Below are positions 1,089 to 36,124 of a DNA stretch of 38,423 nucleotides, piece by piece (the stretch's first letter is position 1; every line of letters starts with the position of its first letter). A program made the translations under genes and the position numbers. The stretch is taken from positions 1-38,423 of the IMG/VR virus record IMGVR_UViG_3300031945_000013; one strand, written 5' to 3'. The stretch is from a virus. Taxonomy: Duplodnaviria; Caudoviricetes. The notes under the pieces were generated by a model. That model was not told where the DNA came from. It ran no database searches and saw only the letters and a list, made by a program, of their open reading frames with translations.

Positions 1089-1715
1089 ATGCCGATTATC
1101 GGAACACTGCCAAACATCATCCAGAACGGGCAAGTGGTGGATGCCAATCCGGTAATGGCGGATCTTAACTACATTGTCAATCAGGTTAACGCGAACGGCA
1201 ACCCTGCCGGTACGCTTACTGCACCTACCGGAACGCGGGTTGTATTCCAGCAGTCGGCGGCGCCCCTCGGGTGGACGGCGGATGCAACGATTACCGACCA
1301 TACCCTACAATTGACAGCGGCGAGTGGAGCTATTGTAGCTACGGGGAATCAGTACAGCGGTCTGTTTAGCCTCCCTTGGGTATCAGACGGTCACTCGCTG
1401 ACGATAGCCGAACTGGCGGCGCATGCGCATAACGTAAGCGATCCGCAGCATAACCATACCAGCCCCGGCCACCAGCACGGAACCGCTTCCGGTAATAATT
1501 TCTGGACGGCCACGCCTACAGGTGGCGCATCGGTGAATCTCCCCGGCGGCGCGAATTCCATCAATCAGGAAACGCTGACGAACGCCGTCGCGGTTTCGAT
1601 CAATTCGAGCGCAACGGGGATCAGCATACAGAACAATGGTTCGGGTAATGCGCACAGCCATACGAAGACCTTCAACGTGAACTATGCACAAGGTATTGTG
1701 GGGGTGAAGGCGTGA
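1089..1715 (+). CDS. Short tail fibre / spike protein with HxH motifs
   Basis: Collar-like APTGTRVVFQQSAAPLGW segment; HAH, HNH, HQH and HSH motifs like those of metal-binding fibre tips. Confidence 0.7.
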   Translation: MPIIGTLPNIIQNGQVVDANPVMADLNYIVNQVNANGNPAGTLTAPTGTRVVFQQSAAPLGWTADATITDHTLQLTAASGAIVATGNQYSGLFSLPWVSDGHSLTIAELAAHAHNVSDPQHNHTSPGHQHGTASGNNFWTATPTGGASVNLPGGANSINQETLTNAVAVSINSSATGISIQNNGSGNAHSHTKTFNVNYAQGIVGVKA

Positions 1716-2943: not shown

Positions 2944-3310
2944 TCCGATCACAGCAGGGCTTGACCTTGCGCAGACCGTAGTTTCCAAGATCTGGCCCGA
3001 CAAGTCGGCGCAGGAACAGGCGCAGTTGTCTGCTGTCCTCTCGATGATCACGGCACAAACTGACATCAACAAGGCGGAAGCGCAATCGAGCGACCCTCTC
3101 CAGCACTGGCGAGGCGGTCTCGGATGGGTCTGTGTTTGCGGGTATTTCGTCAACTATGTTTTGACGTGGGGCGTAAATACCGCGGGTGCATTCATGGGGC
3201 ACCCCGTCCACATTCCTTACATGGATATGTCGGAACTGGGAACGCTTACGCTCGGTATGCTAGGCTTGGGCGGTCTCCATGTAGCAGAACGCATAAAAGG
3301 GGTATCGTGA
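2933..3310 (+). CDS. Holin (3TM holin / DUF3154-like)
   Basis: PD(K) motif, INKAEA, WR..LGWVC and MLGLGGL...E(R)IKGV pattern; adjacent to the endolysin. Confidence 0.8.
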   Translation: MALDPITAGLDLAQTVVSKIWPDKSAQEQAQLSAVLSMITAQTDINKAEAQSSDPLQHWRGGLGWVCVCGYFVNYVLTWGVNTAGAFMGHPVHIPYMDMSELGTLTLGMLGLGGLHVAERIKGVS

Positions 3311-3864
3311 GAAACTTCGTACAGATCGCAGCAGGTATCGACACTTCGGCCATTCTTCTGGAGATTGCGCGCCAGCCCAAACTCTGGAACCGGCACGGCG
3401 AACGCAAGGCGCTGGAAGTGCATCGCGCGATGGACGATATCTGGCTTCGGTATAACGATGAGAAGCCGTACCGGGAATCGGGCGACTGGTCCACGTTCAA
3501 TGACGAGCATGAGTCGAAGAACTATCCGGAATGGTATGCCCTGCCTTCGATCCACAGTCTGGTCTTCGATCTTGCGCACAGGGTCAAGGCAACACGGATT
3601 GGCGGCATCCTGATTACCCGGATTCCACCCGGTGGCAGGATCGAGCCCCATGTTGATGGCGGTTGGCACGCCACGTATTACAATACGAAACTGTACGTTG
3701 TATTACAGTCGAATCCGCAGTGTATCAATTCAGCGGAAGATGAAAAGGTGGCGATGGCTCCCGGTTCGGTCTGGTACTTCGACAATGCGAAGATGCACGA
3801 TGTCGTGAATGACGGCGTCGATGACCGAATGACGCTGATTATCTGCCTTCGGTGCGAGAAATGA
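3307..3864 (+). CDS. Aspartyl/asparaginyl beta-hydroxylase-family 2OG-Fe(II) oxygenase
   Basis: GTG 3307 overlapping the holin stop; PGGRIEPHVD (HxD), WYFDNAKMH (distal His) and DRMTL (Arg for 2OG). Confidence 0.85.
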   Translation: MRNFVQIAAGIDTSAILLEIARQPKLWNRHGERKALEVHRAMDDIWLRYNDEKPYRESGDWSTFNDEHESKNYPEWYALPSIHSLVFDLAHRVKATRIGGILITRIPPGGRIEPHVDGGWHATYYNTKLYVVLQSNPQCINSAEDEKVAMAPGSVWYFDNAKMHDVVNDGVDDRMTLIICLRCEK

Positions 3865-4142
3865 TCAAACACCATTTCTCTGCCGGAGGCGTGTACTGCC
3901 GGGAACAGACGCTCGAAGCAGGGCGGGAAGTCGAGAAGCACGTCCACGACTACGACCATTTGAGCTATCTGGGTTCAGGCGTGGCTAGCGTGGATGTAGA
4001 AGGTGAGTTACAGGTTCTGACAGGCCCCGCCATGCTGGAAATCAAGGCGGGAAAGCGGCACAGGATTCAGGCGATAACCGATATTACCTGGCTCTGCATC
4101 CATTCTGAAGCGATTGCGGACCCAGACATTGATAAGGAGTAG
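3861..4142 (+). CDS. Cupin-domain protein
   Basis: HHFSAGGVYCRE, KHVHDYDH and GKRHRIQA cupin motifs. Confidence 0.75.
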   Translation: MIKHHFSAGGVYCREQTLEAGREVEKHVHDYDHLSYLGSGVASVDVEGELQVLTGPAMLEIKAGKRHRIQAITDITWLCIHSEAIADPDIDKE

Positions 4143-29700: not shown

Positions 29701-31887
29701 ATGGCGCGCAAAAAGAAAGAAGAGAAGAAGGACGAGCAGCCCGTAATCGAAAAAGTCGATTCACGGGCTATTGATTCTGAGCGGACCGGGGAAGAAATCG
29801 AGAACTGGGCAGAAGACATGTCTTCGGATGCCTATATCGACGCGTGCAAGCTTTATCCGAAGATACAACAGTGCTACACAAATAAGCAACAACAATCCGA
29901 TTGGATAGAAGAATATTGGAACATCTACAATGCGCGCCCCGATGAGAACCAGCAATACACTGGAAACAGCCAGTGCTACATTCCTGCCGTTCGTGATGCA
30001 GTCAATGCTCGATGCAAGCGAACACTGGCTACTCTTTTCCCGGCCAATTACAAACATGTGGATGCAGTGGGACCGGCTGATGTCACGCCATATCCTACGC
30101 TCGCATTGCTGGAACACTACATTCGCCGGACAAACCTGAAAGACATTGTCCGTACGGACCTTCTTTCAGGCGACGTGACGGGCCAGTGGGTTCTTTACAT
30201 AGACTGGCTGCGCACCACGCGACGCGTGACAGAACTGGTCAAGAAGCCCCCTGTCGTTGAAATCGACCTCGGCGAGGAAACGGACGACGTCGAAGACGTC
30301 ACCGTTGAGATGGAATGGGATGTCGAAGACAAGACGGTCGTCGAAGAGATGCCCGACGTCACGCCGATGGCAGTGGATGATCTGGCCGTCTATCCGCCGA
30401 CCGTGAATGACATCGAGCGCGCCACGGCTACGGCTGTGCGTTTGCGGCTGTCCAAGGAATCCGTCCAGCAGTTCATCGACGAAGGTGTCTTCGTCGGCTG
30501 GAATGCGAAAGAAATCATGGACAACCTGAACGAACCCGACGGTGGTCGTCAGAAGCGCGTCCCGCAGAAACGTCGCACGGCGGATGCGGGTGTCCGGACG
30601 GAAGGGACATACAAGTATGCGCTGATTTACGAAGTGCATACCGACCTTGAACTGGAAGAAGGCAAGGGCAAAGAGCCGTGCTTTGTCTACTATGCGGGTC
30701 CGGAAATCATTCTCGGCATTATCCGTAATCCGTTCTGGCCGAAGAAACGCCCGGTCATTACGGCGCCCGTCGAACGGATTCAGGGAACGATTTACGGTAT
30801 TTCCCGCGTGGAACCCGTCAAGTATCTCCAGTGGAACCTGAATGACTACTGGAACATGGGTCAGGATTCAGCGCAATACGCGCTCCTGCCTATCGTCATG
30901 ACCGATCCGTTAGCGAACCCTAATTACCAGTCGATGGTCATGGGTCTTGCCGCCGTGTGGCTGACTGATCCGCAGAAGACGCAGTTTGCGCAGTTCCCTG
31001 CGATCTACAAGGATGCCGTTGCGCTCTGTCAGGCGATCAAGGCACAGATCAATGAGAGCATGGAAGTCAATGACGCCATGCTCGGCAAGGCGCCGGCAGG
31101 CCGGAAGAATCAGGCGCAGGCCGCTGCGATGGCGCAGGAACAGCAATCGAACATCATTGACCACGCGAAGCGGTATGAGCAGTGCATCCTGAACCCGCTG
31201 CTTGAACGCATGTTCGAGCTCGACCGCCAGTTCCGTACGAAGGAACTGACCGTCATCACGATGGGCGAAGTCGGAGCGCGCGCCAAACAGGAAGAGATTC
31301 CTGTTCAGGCGTTCAACGAGCGGTACTTCTTCCGCTGGTGCGGCACAGCCTATCAGGCCGGTTTGCAGCGCATGCAGCAGATGATCGCGTGGATGAACGT
31401 GCTCCGCGGGATTCCGCCCCAGCAACTGGATGGCCGTCGTCTGAATGTCGGGCCTATCCTTGAGTACGGCACTGAGCAGATTTTCGGTCCGGAACTGGGT
31501 CCGCGAATCCTGATCGACGAGCGCAACCTGTATCACGTCGATCCGGAAGACGAAAACCTGATGATGCACAACGGCATGCCTGCGAACGTGCATCCGGCCG
31601 ATGATGACCAGCGTCACCTCGCAGCGCACATGCGTGGCGCGACGCTCACAGGCGATCCGCACGGGCTGTTCCGTGCACACATTCAGGCGCATCAGCAGGC
31701 GATGCAGCAGAAGATGATGAAGAACCAGCCCCCGCAACCCGGCCAGCAGGGCATACCGGGCGGAGCGGGTCCGGGCGTGGCGGGCACTCCGCGACCGGGC
31801 GCGATTCCCGGACAGCCCCGTCCGCAAGGCCCTGCCGGCATGATTCATCCGGATCAGGTCCAGGACGCACAGATGGGGCCGCGCTAA
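29701..31887 (+). CDS. Portal protein
   Basis: 728 aa following terL; IYGISRVEPVKYLQ..LN segment; Q/P/G-rich C-terminal tail. Confidence 0.85.
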   Translation: MARKKKEEKKDEQPVIEKVDSRAIDSERTGEEIENWAEDMSSDAYIDACKLYPKIQQCYTNKQQQSDWIEEYWNIYNARPDENQQYTGNSQCYIPAVRDAVNARCKRTLATLFPANYKHVDAVGPADVTPYPTLALLEHYIRRTNLKDIVRTDLLSGDVTGQWVLYIDWLRTTRRVTELVKKPPVVEIDLGEETDDVEDVTVEMEWDVEDKTVVEEMPDVTPMAVDDLAVYPPTVNDIERATATAVRLRLSKESVQQFIDEGVFVGWNAKEIMDNLNEPDGGRQKRVPQKRRTADAGVRTEGTYKYALIYEVHTDLELEEGKGKEPCFVYYAGPEIILGIIRNPFWPKKRPVITAPVERIQGTIYGISRVEPVKYLQWNLNDYWNMGQDSAQYALLPIVMTDPLANPNYQSMVMGLAAVWLTDPQKTQFAQFPAIYKDAVALCQAIKAQINESMEVNDAMLGKAPAGRKNQAQAAAMAQEQQSNIIDHAKRYEQCILNPLLERMFELDRQFRTKELTVITMGEVGARAKQEEIPVQAFNERYFFRWCGTAYQAGLQRMQQMIAWMNVLRGIPPQQLDGRRLNVGPILEYGTEQIFGPELGPRILIDERNLYHVDPEDENLMMHNGMPANVHPADDDQRHLAAHMRGATLTGDPHGLFRAHIQAHQQAMQQKMMKNQPPQPGQQGIPGGAGPGVAGTPRPGAIPGQPRPQGPAGMIHPDQVQDAQMGPR

Positions 31888-32228
31888 TGAGTTACGCCAA
31901 GTGCACCCCGTGGGGAACGATCCGCACGGGTCCGCAATTCCAGAAACTGACGCCCGGTGAAAAGGCGGCAGTGATTGCACACGAGACGGCGCATATCAGG
32001 AATCACGATTCGCTCAAACGGATCTGGTGGCTGGTAACATTGCGCTATTTCTTCCGCCCTGAATGGGTCGCGCAGAAGTGCAAGGATCAGGAATTCGCGG
32101 CAGACCAGTACGTGAAGGATTGCGGTCTGGCCCCTTGGCTTGCCATGTTCCTTGCGCGCGCGAAAGACGATTCGGGCGGTCCCTTCCATCCGTCTGTCAT
32201 GGAAAGAGTGAGAGCGCTAAATGGCTGA
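31887..32228 (+). CDS. Minimal M48-family (HtpX-like) zinc metallopeptidase
   Basis: AVIAHETAH (HExxH), QEFAAD (third ligand), FHPSVMERVRAL; hydrophobic IWWLVTLRYFF segment. Confidence 0.85.
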   Translation: MSYAKCTPWGTIRTGPQFQKLTPGEKAAVIAHETAHIRNHDSLKRIWWLVTLRYFFRPEWVAQKCKDQEFAADQYVKDCGLAPWLAMFLARAKDDSGGPFHPSVMERVRALNG

Positions 32229-33384
32229 TCCATTCCAGATTATCCCGCCAGTCGTAAGAGCGGAGGGTAAAGACGTTCCACCTGAACAGATTCAGGCGGC
32301 GCTTAACTCACTCGCCCGTCAGACACAGATCGGGCTTAACAGCGTGGCGAGTGATCCGTCCGGCCCTGCCGGCGGCGATCTTGGCGGGATGTACCCGAAC
32401 CCTACGGTTACCGGCCTGCACGTCACAACCGGTACGGCGAGCGGCATTGCTGTAACCACAAGTACGGTCGATAGCACGCCGATCGGGCAGACCACGCCGG
32501 CAGCTGGCGTCTTTACGACTCTCACGGCTACTACGCCTGTGGGCGCGACCAGTGGCGGTACGGGTCGTAATGCGCTGTCCGCGAACACTGTTCTGATTGG
32601 CGAGGGTTCCTCGCCTGTGAACTTCGCGGCGCCGACAGCGACCACGGGCATTCCTCTTGTCTCGAACGGGGCGGCAGCAGATCCTTCCTTCACTACCGCC
32701 AGTGTGGCAGGTGGCGGTACGGGGCGGGTGTCACTGACGACTCACGGTGTACTGATCGGTGAAGGCACGGCTGGCATTAACCAGACGGTGGCCGGCACTA
32801 CGGGCCAGATGCTTCTGGGGTCCACGGGTGCCGATCCGGCGTTCGGCAATAACCCGGTCATTACTGGCGGTTCGATTGACGGCGCACCTGTTGGCGCCAC
32901 TACACCATCTACGGGTAAGTTCACAACGCTTTCCAGTACCGGTACGTTCACGCCTTCCAGCACGAATGGCATTGTCGGAACTACGACTAACGACAATGCG
33001 AACGCGGGAAGCGTAGGCGAATTCTTACAAGCCAGCACGACAGGGACTTCGCTGACGAACAACACGAATGCCAACGCTACGTCTGTAAGTCTGACGGCTG
33101 GCGACTGGGACGTGTGGGGCGTAGTAAATTTCGTTCCGGCAGGCACAACCACGGTAAATAACCTCGTGGCCAGTATCAGCACGACCTCAGCGACGGTGGG
33201 GGCAGTGGGTACTTTTACCAGTATGGCTACGACTTTCACGACAGGCACTGTGCAACGGTTTTCAGCACTTCCTGTGCGCCTTAGTCTGCCAACGACTACC
33301 CCGGTGTTTCTTGTGGCGCAGGCCGGATTTGGCGTTAGCACGATGACAGCAGACGGGTATCTGTACGCCCGGCGCAGACGTTGA
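32221..33384 (+). CDS. Fibre-like virion protein with GGTG repeats
   Basis: AGGDL.G.YPNP.V, repeated V.GGGTG and IDG.P.G.TTP..G.FTTL units, C-terminal beta-sandwich (LTAGDWDV). Confidence 0.65.
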   Translation: MADPFQIIPPVVRAEGKDVPPEQIQAALNSLARQTQIGLNSVASDPSGPAGGDLGGMYPNPTVTGLHVTTGTASGIAVTTSTVDSTPIGQTTPAAGVFTTLTATTPVGATSGGTGRNALSANTVLIGEGSSPVNFAAPTATTGIPLVSNGAAADPSFTTASVAGGGTGRVSLTTHGVLIGEGTAGINQTVAGTTGQMLLGSTGADPAFGNNPVITGGSIDGAPVGATTPSTGKFTTLSSTGTFTPSSTNGIVGTTTNDNANAGSVGEFLQASTTGTSLTNNTNANATSVSLTAGDWDVWGVVNFVPAGTTTVNNLVASISTTSATVGAVGTFTSMATTFTTGTVQRFSALPVRLSLPTTTPVFLVAQAGFGVSTMTADGYLYARRRR

Positions 33385-33437
33385 CTTTTAGTAACAGATC
33401 GCATATAACCGGGCGAAAGCCTTAAACGGAGCAAATC

Positions 33438-33959
33438 ATGAAGAAACTTCGATTGGCCGAAATTATCGGCTCGCTTTTCCCCGGCGTGCAGGGCCAGACA
33501 CCCGCCATCTCGCCGGTTCTTGGCGCAATGCCGGATCAGATTGGCGTGATCAATGCGATTCTCGCAATCAATCCGTGGCAGGCAACGATCTACAATGCCG
33601 CAGCGAACACGACCGGTTTCACGGCAACTCAATCGCAGGTGATGGGTGCTGAATTCACGGTTCTGGAATTGACGGGCACGATTGGCGCTGGCCAGGCTCT
33701 TACTCTTCCGACTGTCGCTAACCTGATTGCAACCCTCACGCCGCAACAGGCTGTTGTCGGTTCGACGATCGGTCTCCGTGTTGGCCGTGCTGCAACGGGC
33801 GCTTTCAACTGGACAGTTACCACGAATACGGGCTGGACGTTGAATGGTACGATGACCATCGCTCAAAGCACCTTCCGTGATTTCTTCATCACGCTCACCA
33901 ACGTGGGTTCCACGCCTACGGCTGTCATCCAGCAGGTTGGTACTGGCACCTGGAGCTAA
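33438..33959 (+). CDS. Probable capsid decoration / minor head protein with LFPG leader
   Basis: Beta-rich LTLPT motif; directly upstream of the scaffold gene. Confidence 0.55.
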   Translation: MKKLRLAEIIGSLFPGVQGQTPAISPVLGAMPDQIGVINAILAINPWQATIYNAAANTTGFTATQSQVMGAEFTVLELTGTIGAGQALTLPTVANLIATLTPQQAVVGSTIGLRVGRAATGAFNWTVTTNTGWTLNGTMTIAQSTFRDFFITLTNVGSTPTAVIQQVGTGTWS

Positions 33960-33960
33960 A

Positions 33961-34686
33961 GTGAACAAGCTACTCAAAAAACTTCTGGCCTATCTGTTTC
34001 CGGGGATTGACGGAGATAACGATGATCCTGCTGACCTTGGAAACGATGTTCCGGATGATTCCGCTGGCGATGATGATCTGGATTTGCCTGTTGATGATCT
34101 TCCTGATGATCCTCCCGCACCTGTCCGCTCGCGCCATGATGATCGTGACGAGCGTCTGGCTCGTCTGGAAGCTGAAGTTGAGCGCCGGGGCCGCATGGCG
34201 GAAGACTTCCGCCGGAATCAGCCCCCTGCGGTAGATCCGGAATACCAGCGCGAAGAAGAGCGTTTGCGTGCGCAGGATCTGAGCGACCTTGAACGCTGGC
34301 AGATCCAGAGCAATCGCACCTTGCGTGACACGCAACGTGAAGCACGTCAGGCGATGGCGCAAGCGCAGGACATGATGGACCGGGCGAAGTTTGAGAGCAA
34401 GGTTACCTCTGATCCGCGACGCGCGAAGTATGCTGACCGCGTGGAAGAAGCTATCCAGCAGGAAAGGTCGCAGGGCCGTAGCGCGTCGCGCGAAGCCGTG
34501 TACTACTACATGCTGGGTAAGGACATCGCGGAAGGCAAGGTCAAGAGCAAACCGAAGGTCGCTTCCAGCGCGCCGGCAGTTCCGCGCGGCAAGTCGCCAG
34601 CGGTGCGCAGTGATGTTCAGGGCCGTGGCCGTGCGTCGTCCGAACAGGACAAACGCCGTTCGCGTCTCGAAAACATGAATATCTAA
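33961..34686 (+). CDS. Scaffolding protein with LFPG leader
   Basis: GTG 33961 with GGAG RBS; acidic N-terminus, coiled-coil, basic C-terminus; immediately before the MCP gene. Confidence 0.75.
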   Translation: MNKLLKKLLAYLFPGIDGDNDDPADLGNDVPDDSAGDDDLDLPVDDLPDDPPAPVRSRHDDRDERLARLEAEVERRGRMAEDFRRNQPPAVDPEYQREEERLRAQDLSDLERWQIQSNRTLRDTQREARQAMAQAQDMMDRAKFESKVTSDPRRAKYADRVEEAIQQERSQGRSASREAVYYYMLGKDIAEGKVKSKPKVASSAPAVPRGKSPAVRSDVQGRGRASSEQDKRRSRLENMNI

Positions 34687-34705
34687 ACGATCCCAGGGAG
34701 GGACC

Positions 34706-36124
34706 ATGAAAGTAAGCAAATTTGCCCTTCTCCGGGCGTATCTGTTTCCGGGCGTAACGAACCAGTCAACCAGTTTCACGGCTGACGTTGAAGCGTACAT
34801 TCAGGAAGAAGTTGAACCGCTGGCACGTCGCCAGCTGGTCGCGTACCAGTTCGGCAAGCCTCTGAAGCTGGACACGAACCGCGGCACGACGTACACGGCT
34901 TCGCGCTACCAGCGTCTGCCGCTGCCGTTCGCACCGTTGCAGGAAGGTGTTGCGCCTCCCGGCGAAGCAATGACGCTGCAACAGGTTTCGGCCACGGCCC
35001 AGCAATGGGGCGACCGCGTCATCATCACTGACGTGGCGAACCTCACCATCAAGCACCCGCTGTTCCAGCAGGCTTGCGAACTGGTCGCGCTGCAACTACC
35101 GGAAACGCTTGAGCGTAATACGTTCAACACACTGCTCGCCACGACGCAGGTGAACTACGCGAACGGCAAAGCCTCGCGTGCCAACCTGCTGGCTACGGAC
35201 GTGATGACCCCGCACGAGAATAACCGCATCGTCGGTTCGTTCCTTACGTACGGTGTGCCGCGTTTCATGGGCGATGAACGCGAAGACATGATGATTGAGG
35301 CGGGCGCATACCGCGATCCGTCGAAGTCGCCGGCTGTCATGCAACACTACGTTGCACTGATCCATCCGCTGTCGGCGCAGGACATGCGCGAAAACACGAC
35401 CGTGGTGAACGCATGGTCATACAGCGATGTCAACCGTCTGTATAACAACGAACTGGGTCCGTTTGGCGGTTCGCGCTTCGTTGAATCGAACCTGCTTCCT
35501 TACTGGACAGGCGCAGCAGCGATTCAGGGCACGGCTTCCGCTTCTGGCGGTACGCTGGCTACGAACGCTGGTTACCAGATCATTGTTACGGCATCGCCGG
35601 CACAGACGAGCGTCGAACAGATCATTTATCAGGTTTCGAACGCGATCAGCGTTACGGGTCCGACAGGTTCCATCACGGTGACGCTGCCGAACCTGCCGAA
35701 CTACGTGTTCAACGTCTATATCGGTACGTCGTCAACGCCTTCGAACCTCGCAACGGCAATTGGTAACGGTGTTCCGGTTACGGGTCCGCTGGCTGGTCAG
35801 GCTACGCAGTTGCTGCCGAACCAGACGGTGACGCTGACGGGTATCGGTGTTACGCAAACGCCGCCGGCGGCTCCCGCCACGGGCGTTAGCGTGTTCCCGA
35901 CGATCTACATCGGTAACCATTCGTACGGCCAGGTTCTGCTAGAAAACCCGGAATTCCACTACCTGACGGGCGCTGACAAGTCGGACCCGCTGAACCAGAC
36001 CCGTGTAGTATCGTGGAAAGTCTTTTACGGCTCGATCATTCTCAATCAGGCGTTCCTCGCCCGTGTTGAGGCTGGCTCGGCCTTTACCGCTGGCTACTCT
36101 GCTGGCACTGTGACCACCCCGTAA
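34706..36124 (+). CDS. Major capsid protein (N4-gp56-like) with LFPG leader
   Basis: QFG, PLQEGV.P, QWGD.V.ITD, YVALIHP, NELG..GG.RFVES and DPLNQ..VSWK motifs. Confidence 0.9.
   Translation: MKVSKFALLRAYLFPGVTNQSTSFTADVEAYIQEEVEPLARRQLVAYQFGKPLKLDTNRGTTYTASRYQRLPLPFAPLQEGVAPPGEAMTLQQVSATAQQWGDRVIITDVANLTIKHPLFQQACELVALQLPETLERNTFNTLLATTQVNYANGKASRANLLATDVMTPHENNRIVGSFLTYGVPRFMGDEREDMMIEAGAYRDPSKSPAVMQHYVALIHPLSAQDMRENTTVVNAWSYSDVNRLYNNELGPFGGSRFVESNLLPYWTGAAAIQGTASASGGTLATNAGYQIIVTASPAQTSVEQIIYQVSNAISVTGPTGSITVTLPNLPNYVFNVYIGTSSTPSNLATAIGNGVPVTGPLAGQATQLLPNQTVTLTGIGVTQTPPAAPATGVSVFPTIYIGNHSYGQVLLENPEFHYLTGADKSDPLNQTRVVSWKVFYGSIILNQAFLARVEAGSAFTAGYSAGTVTTP

Follow-up and report, generated by a model that had tools for sequence, protein, structure and literature searches.

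Why should three consecutive and otherwise unrelated structural genes of a tailed phage begin with the same short peptide, and which enzyme would take it off again? The question is raised by the virus record IMGVR_UViG_3300031945_000013 (Duplodnaviria; Caudoviricetes), of which the entire length of 38,423 nucleotides (nt; completeness estimate 100%) was analysed and is called the window below. In its head module a spike-like protein, the inferred scaffold and the major capsid protein (MCP) all begin with leaders of 15-16 amino acids (aa) that end in LFPG followed by V or I, and a gene for a small M48 zinc metallopeptidase lies upstream of them. An earlier sequence-only reading had given the reading frames, starts (33438, 33961, 34706) and leader sequences correctly, and had proposed that the phage employs this peptidase of its own to remove the leaders near the G/V or G/I junction. 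The proposal stands in so far as the peptidase is the best candidate, by its co-occurrence with the leader, its intact catalytic residues, the lack of S78 or S49 proteases in the genome and the lack of Prp in the 151 genomes searched from the likely host order; the removal of the leader, the pairing of enzyme and substrate and the site of action are what we infer from the sequences. We consider it likely that the M48 protein is a dedicated leader peptidase, i.e., a phage-encoded counterpart of the host enzyme Prp, which is a cysteine protease. The features concerned are the following.

31887..32228, + strand: minimal M48 zinc metallopeptidase, 113 aa (PF01435, homologue alignment, model, hydropathy)
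33438..33485, + strand: leader 1, of the spike-like protein, 16 aa, ending in LFPG, predicted cut before V17
33438..33959, + strand: spike/decoration-like protein, 173 aa, with a predicted TNF-like knob (structure match to the Pa223 knob)
33961..34005, + strand: leader 2, of the scaffold, 15 aa, ending in LFPG, predicted cut before I16
33961..34686, + strand: scaffolding protein, 241 aa, GTG start (inferred from its position and acidic N-terminal region)
34706..34753, + strand: leader 3, of the MCP, 16 aa, ending in LFPG, predicted cut G16/V17
34706..36124, + strand: MCP of the N4-gp56 family, 472 aa (TIGR04387, 131.9 bits against a cut-off of 60; phrog_1357)

The distribution of leader and peptidase among related genomes carries this view. 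When loci were collected by MCP queries only (175 unique MCPs with a start; 49 partial loci were set aside), an M48 gene was present in 62/62 loci with a leadered MCP and in 0/61 leaderless ones in which the interval between the portal and MCP genes was covered. After further loci had been added, some of them from the M48 query, the counts were 87/87 and 0/66, and the MCP leader is found in every M48-positive locus. In both sets of loci three further MCPs (L081, L088, L247) fell into neither group, having extensions of another kind and no M48. Among whole virus records, the M48 gene occurred in four of four leadered controls and in none of the 14 records of at least 90% completeness that have no M48-type leader. 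A scan of the leaderless loci for HExxH yielded no M48-like open reading frame (ORF), only one SprT-like ORF on the minus strand (L161), outside the head module; weak M48 matches in the metagenome-assembled genome (MAG) G017 are parts of longer open frames and probably represent peptidases of the host.

The median identity of the M48 proteins is 37%, versus 77% for the MCPs (first 70 loci of the list), and the peptidase gene is kept in four loci (L324, L342, L346, L350) where no spike-family gene was detected. We interpret this retention inside the clade as adding weight to the pairing of leader and M48. Separately, two divergent M48 types, which share about 36% and 55% identity with that of the window, alternate beside near-identical MCPs and leaders in the Burkholderia-type loci L059-L080, a pattern that suggests swaps of M48 alleles which always keep an M48.

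Within the window, GGAG stands upstream of each of the three leadered starts, and no start codon lies in frame at the end of the MCP leader, where V17 is encoded by GTA. A six-frame scan for [LFIVM]FPG gave five matches, three of which are the leader N-termini, while two lie in minus-strand frames opposite plus-strand genes. Against a leader profile the three leaders score 14.6-17.9, and no other of the 87 ORFs that have candidate starts exceeds 7.6; as MCP homologues served to train the profile, the score of the MCP is circular. The ends of the scaffold and MCP leaders are close at the DNA level, as would be expected if the common residues were the by-product of a translational operator or of gene conversion. 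The spike gene, however, encodes the same residues by different codons, and all synonymous codons are used across 93 distinct LFPG-[VI] copies in relatives, which indicates that the constraint acts on the protein; an RNA or DNA element as the cause is largely refuted and, in our judgement, extremely improbable.

The leader is kept in 120 MCP homologues (73-95% identity) while its body varies. It is a basic, acid-poor and hydrophobic extension, 7-30 aa long among 115 unique MCP leaders (median 17), and 107 of these have no acidic residue. Length and body vary freely, whereas the last six residues are constrained to [FLY]-[LF]-x-[PL]-G followed by [VIL], with Gly at P1 in 94/115 and Pro (71) or Leu/Ile (41) at P2. 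The leader which the sequence-only reading had recognised is therefore conserved at the protein level, but LFPG is only one of its variants, present exactly in 29 of the 115. P1' is V, L, I or A in all 77 unique MCP hexamers and V, L or I in 75 of them, a count that is partly fixed by the definition of the anchor. Gluzincins prefer a hydrophobic P1', with which the aliphatic residues at this position fit.

More distant MCPs are leaderless and start with M-[AP]-[TV]-N. Their Met stands at the position of G16 in 73/87 cases, and 85/87 have Ala or Pro as residue 2; by the rule for Met removal (PMC10052503; this and the other sources given by number below are cited from parts of their text), they would be left in the same register as a product of a cut at G16/V17. 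In two protein families, the MCP and a tail-fibre-like protein, leaderless orthologues begin at the predicted cut, and we conclude that the cut is probably at the G/V or G/I junction. An internal translation start at the junction was considered and rejected, as the P1' codons are mostly not start codons.

The 113-aa peptidase matches PF01435 with 29.1 bits (cut-off 20.3) and contains HExxH (residues 32-36), ExxAD (69-73) and HP-x4-R (101-107). Nine residues are invariant in 51 homologues (H32, E33, H36, R45, E69, D73, G80, P102, R107), and 125 of the 129 unique M48 domains contain HExxH with the downstream E-x-x-[AC]-D, the other four being cut by contig ends; H101 of HP-x4-R, the plug His, is His in 56/129 and Tyr in 45/129. 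These counts refer to relatives sampled without the most divergent ones outside the clade: the sequence search gave the best 80 of 149 matches and the profile search 14 proteins, and broad alignments of diverse MCPs and of divergent M48s were nowhere conserved well enough to support a scan of loci. The best PDB match by profile is Ste24p (E 2.7e-7), and the structural model (predicted local distance difference test, pLDDT, 94) superposes on ZMPSTE24 with Z 10.3 and a root-mean-square deviation (rmsd) of 2.1 A over 106 residues; Ste24p, BlaR1, BepA and abylysin rank behind it. Foldseek found no M48 match in the PDB below E 0.001 (the best, again ZMPSTE24, had 3.3e-3) and other viral M48-like proteins in BFVD; in the ESM Atlas the protein falls into a 51-member cluster of mostly viral M48, and tblastn against INPHARED gave only two weak partial matches in unannotated contigs. 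Models of HtpX score far below cut-off. The hydrophobic segment that had been read as a sign of membrane association is an amphipathic helix, and we rejected a transmembrane M48 on a best 19-residue Kyte-Doolittle mean of 0.6 (above 1.6 in only 4/72 homologues). Judged by its sequence, the window protein is a bare M48 catalytic core with an intact gluzincin site. It has no leader of its own. A model of the complex of M48, zinc and MCP residues 1-32 scored 0.22 against a mark of 0.32 and counts neither for nor against the pairing. The genome has no match to PF04586 or PF01343, i.e., no S78 or S49 protease.

We also have to consider that the leader might never be cut and might act as a permanent helix for assembly or membrane targeting, with the M48 gene as a passenger acquired on the same branch. 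The single origin on the tree would agree with this, as would the helix modelled over residues 2-13 of leader 1, the amphipathic nature of the leaders (hydrophobic moments of 0.58 and 0.59 in the spike and scaffold leaders, 0.24 in that of the MCP) and the viability of uncleavable mutants of phage 80alpha (PMC5744158). However, a permanent helix accounts poorly for leaders that are free in length and body and constrained in their last six residues, for orthologues that start exactly at the junction, and for catalytic residues that are intact in 125/125 complete M48 copies. We regard it as unlikely.

Which proteins bear the leader bears on where it would be removed. The scaffold leader is present in nearly all rows inspected, although the inferred scaffold has no family match; the family of the 173-aa protein and its paralogue of about 265 aa are often leadered, with some leaderless copies, and an ORF of 115-125 aa that follows the M48 gene has the leader in 8/10 rows. 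The 173-aa protein resembles the capsid spike knob of Pa223 (Z 8.5 and rmsd 3.0 A for 95 aligned residues; Foldseek E 7e-4), with tailspike domains matching equally well. The Pa223 spike with the matching C-terminal knob is described as an outer virion protein (bioRxiv 10.1101/2025.06.11.659172), and by this structural likeness the 173-aa protein is a predicted outer spike, of either capsid or tail. A further family is represented in the window by a leaderless copy:

1089..1715, + strand: tail-fibre-like protein, leaderless in the window genome (phrog_8469 tail fibre, E 1.2e-6)

This family has a short M48-type leader, in some copies of only 7 aa, in 15/61 rows of the M48 clade and in 0/38 M48-less rows. 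The leader is therefore a tag on head proteins, as had been stated for the MCP and scaffold, but not on these only, and across the clade single structural genes have acquired or lost it.

Where sister phages have no M48, their members of this tail-fibre family mostly show, at the very junction where the short leader would end, a long hydrophobic Sec-like signal ending near A-x-A (29/38 rows, by a heuristic; 30 rows in the whole family), such that the junction is known in three states: nothing, a Sec-like signal and a short M48-type leader. The Sec-like signals are often followed by Cys (L157, L165, L195, L202, L231, L237 and others) and suggest an appendage that is exported to the periplasm and attached at or after lysis. 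Fibre-like ORFs between portal and scaffold genes also have Sec-like starts, both in M48-positive loci of Burkholderia type (L049:6768, L122:7150, L145:7101) and in M48-less ones (L182:4395, L209:4993). Signal peptidase I follows a (-3,-1) rule of small residues with an AxA end; a Sec signal was rejected for the MCP and scaffold leaders, as the rule is met by 30/115 MCP leaders and the AxA end by one (again by a heuristic), and a prepilin leader was rejected as the predicted mature proteins would start with polar residues. Another reading is a private signal-peptide system, in which a portable leader that any structural gene (capsid, scaffold, spikes, tail fibre) can acquire parks subunits at the surface of the inner membrane or at a common assembly site, M48 is its leader peptidase, and the system replaced, at the same tail-fibre junction, the host Sec and signal-peptidase route which M48-less sister phages seem to employ there, before it spread to the capsid. 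We hold this to be conceivable, if rather doubtful.

The position of the M48 gene raises the possibility of a classical prohead protease, which would be packaged together with portal and scaffold and cut only after assembly of the shell, like T4 gp21 or SPN3US gp245. Two further genes of the module are concerned:

29701..31887, + strand: portal protein, 728 aa, without leader (phrog_1216 portal, E 1.7e-10)
32221..33384, + strand: fibre-like protein, 387 aa, without leader (phrog_11393 tail fibre, E 1e-13)

The stop codon of the portal gene (TAA, 31885-31887) overlaps the ATG of the M48 gene (31887-31889) in TAATG; both the coupling of the two genes and the three motifs of the peptidase had been reported correctly. 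The start of the fibre-like gene in turn overlaps the end of the M48 gene, and this gene separates the peptidase from the three leadered ones. Of the placement in a "prohead-protease slot", it holds that the M48 gene lies inside the portal-MCP interval in 87/87 loci, but its place there is loose: 54 copies follow the portal gene directly (within 250 nt), 20 stand just before the scaffold gene and 13 elsewhere. The coupling to the portal gene, the small size of the M48 protein and the MCP and scaffold as constant substrates would suit a prohead protease. Yet such an enzyme would have to reach the predicted outer spike and the tail-fibre-like family (15 rows), it has no leader itself, and sister phages assemble without an encoded M48; these points make a prohead protease improbable.

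A host protease (a Prp-like activity, signal peptidase I, or an M48 of the host, for instance HtpX) could instead remove the leader, in which case the phage M48 would have another target. In favour of a host enzyme, two distant MCPs (P0231, P0238) have Prp-like starts, and extensions of other kinds as well as Sec-like signals occur in M48-less relatives. The poor fit of the MCP leaders to the rule of signal peptidase and the tail-fibre leaders of only 7 aa argue against it, as does the search for Prp (PF04327), which was found in 0/151 genomes of the order of a Burkholderiales MAG and in 0/5 proviruses, the window's own host not being identified. The processing of 80alpha is a precedent (PMC5744158). 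Even so, a host protease leaves the M48 gene in 87/87 leadered loci unexplained, and we give it only a slight chance.

Other N-terminal extensions occur in the wider family. A scaffold-only leader that ends in F-[RAY]-A-P or the like is combined with a leaderless MCP and the absence of an M48 in L155, L159, L162, L167, L173, L194, L199, L204, L212, L235 and L239, two of which are in alphaproteobacterial MAGs; this leader may be the target of a host peptidase. In the MCPs of L081 (L081:9399), L247 and L088 and the scaffold of L207, the M48-less extensions end in an aromatic residue before Ala; the extension of the L081 MCP has 32 aa and its own ribosome-binding site, and the L247 MCP and L207 scaffold have SPNVxF in common. 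Among distant MCPs, P0231, P0238, P0242, P0244 and P0270 have Prp-like starts or other leaders, which implies that cleavable-looking leaders recur across N4-gp56 capsids.

The P2 class was compared between MCP and scaffold after 134 rows had been thinned to 57 genomes (<90% identity; L052 and L071 were dropped for wrong scaffold starts), with the scaffold anchors set by a profile blind to P2, and agrees in 41/57 genomes versus 20.9 by permutation. One genome inside a Leu clade (L104) has Pro at P2 on six genes, namely those of the MCP, the scaffold, the tail fibre and the two spike paralogues and the ORF that follows the M48 gene, and another (L366) has RG before V on both MCP and scaffold. 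Such genome-specific leader variants common to unrelated genes are suggestive only.

Several observations weigh against the M48 protein as a dedicated leader peptidase. Leader and M48 occupy one side of a single branch, supported by 99 in the Shimodaira-Hasegawa-like approximate likelihood ratio test (SH-aLRT) on a thinned tree of 36 rows (the trees are quick LG+G4 ones with SH-aLRT support only), with the M48-less L081-L083 as sister; the co-occurrence that was to be expected from the sequence-only reading holds, but the contrast represents a single gain and not 62 events. The origin of the spike family falls on about this branch as well. The MCPs of L081, L088 and L247 with their other extensions, and about a dozen M48-less scaffolds starting with F[RA]AP-type extensions, imply that this phage family can use leaders without an encoded M48. 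The agreement at P2 lacks significance once phylogeny is taken into account (p 0.25; of 6 independent pairs, on average 2.7 go the same way, 0.0 the opposite way and 3.3 show no difference), several scaffold anchors are visibly misplaced in this test, and three genomes (L437, L439, L447) mix Pro and Leu at P2 among their own genes. Near-identical leaders adjoin M48s that are only 34-55% identical, such that specificity is not tightly tracked. By analogy, cleavage of the leader in 80alpha is dispensable, although the scaffold leader itself is required (PMC5744158), and a leader that blocks assembly until it is cut should therefore not be assumed.

Under the favoured reading of a phage-encoded leader peptidase, M48 would read about six residues (roughly P5-P1') and cut between Gly and the aliphatic Val or Ile. 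The mature MCP would start with VTN and would thereby line up with the [AP]-[TV]-N at which leaderless relatives begin once their Met has been removed. Since the tag is also present on the predicted outer spike and tail-fibre proteins, the enzyme would act in the cytoplasm, either on subunits that are free or assembling or on particles which it reaches from their outside, rather than sealed in the prohead. The purpose is the least certain step: most likely the amphipathic leader would hold new subunits together or keep them assembly-competent until the peptidase releases them, and possible holding sites are a common chaperone, each other or the membrane surface.

The genome in which the system is found encodes a terminase, portal, N4-gp56 capsid protein, SU10-like adaptor, ejection protein, endolysin, holin and a PolA/helicase replication arm, a gene content that suggests a podovirus; a gene cut at the 3' end of the window resumes at position 1. 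Named relatives of its MCP (82-83% identity) are from Burkholderia, Paraburkholderia and a Rhodanobacter MAG. The clade is large, with about 400 matching stretches in IMG/VR and, besides, prophages of Burkholderia and Paraburkholderia, and INPHARED contains no close relative of it (31 records, best MCP identity about 27%). Outside the head module, a 446-aa GARS-like ATP-grasp gene (PF01071, PF02843; 8624-9964) follows the ejection-protein genes and has similar counterparts in L081 and L083. Between the lysis and ejection genes lies an Asp/Asn beta-hydroxylase-like ORF (PF05118, E 4e-13; 3124-3864), which may have a role in the modification of virion proteins, and adjoining it is a small ORF (3852-4142).

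We found no literature description of an M48 peptidase paired with virion leaders, in a search that left subscription journals mostly outside. The maturation proteases of tailed phages described in the parts consulted of PMC5744158, PMC10052503 and PMC7824862 are phage serine peptidases or the host Prp; a phage zinc M48 that removes a portable leader from capsid, scaffold, spike and fibre proteins would, if real, be a further catalytic class among them, with a new mode of action. In 80alpha the purpose of the leaders is unresolved because Prp is essential to the host. In the present system the phage encodes the enzyme as well as the substrates and natural leaderless orthologues serve as controls, and the reason for cleavable leaders on phage structural proteins would become directly testable. 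Likewise, a soluble M48 of 113 aa with a six-residue site would be a minimal model of Ste24/ZMPSTE24 and possibly a tool for the removal of tags.

Among known systems, Ste24p also trims hydrophobic pro-segments. The window peptidase has in common with the M48 family (Ste24p/ZMPSTE24, HtpX, BepA) the fold and the hallmarks HExxH, downstream Glu ligand and HP-x4-R (PMC7950410), but has no transmembrane barrel, signal peptide or tetratricopeptide repeat (TPR) domain and stands in a viral structural-gene context. An uncharacterised zincin-like metallopeptidase of group 1 jumbo phages has been proposed to aid virion maturation; it would supplement a serine prohead protease, and the parts of the source consulted give it neither a substrate motif nor an M48 assignment (PMC7824862). 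Like T4 gp21 and SPN3US gp245, the candidate enzyme is encoded near the head genes and would take N-terminal propeptides off several head proteins at a short motif. Those two are, however, serine peptidases that work in proheads on propeptides of 20-254 aa, with SPN3US cutting after A-X-E (PMC10052503, PMC7824862), whereas here a gluzincin of 113 aa is paired with leaders of 7-30 aa and with predicted outer spike and fibre substrates. The closest likeness is to 80alpha and Prp, where a Prp-cleaved leader, of which 13-14 residues are removed, is one short N-terminal motif common to unrelated structural proteins, with scaffold and capsid protein both tagged and the motif also found on tail proteins of other phages (PMC5744158). 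In contrast to the window system, Prp is a host enzyme that cuts F/A and also processes L27 (PMC5744158); the leaders studied here do not have the F/A motif but [LF]-x-[PL]-G/[VIL], and the candidate for their removal is a zinc peptidase of the phage itself.

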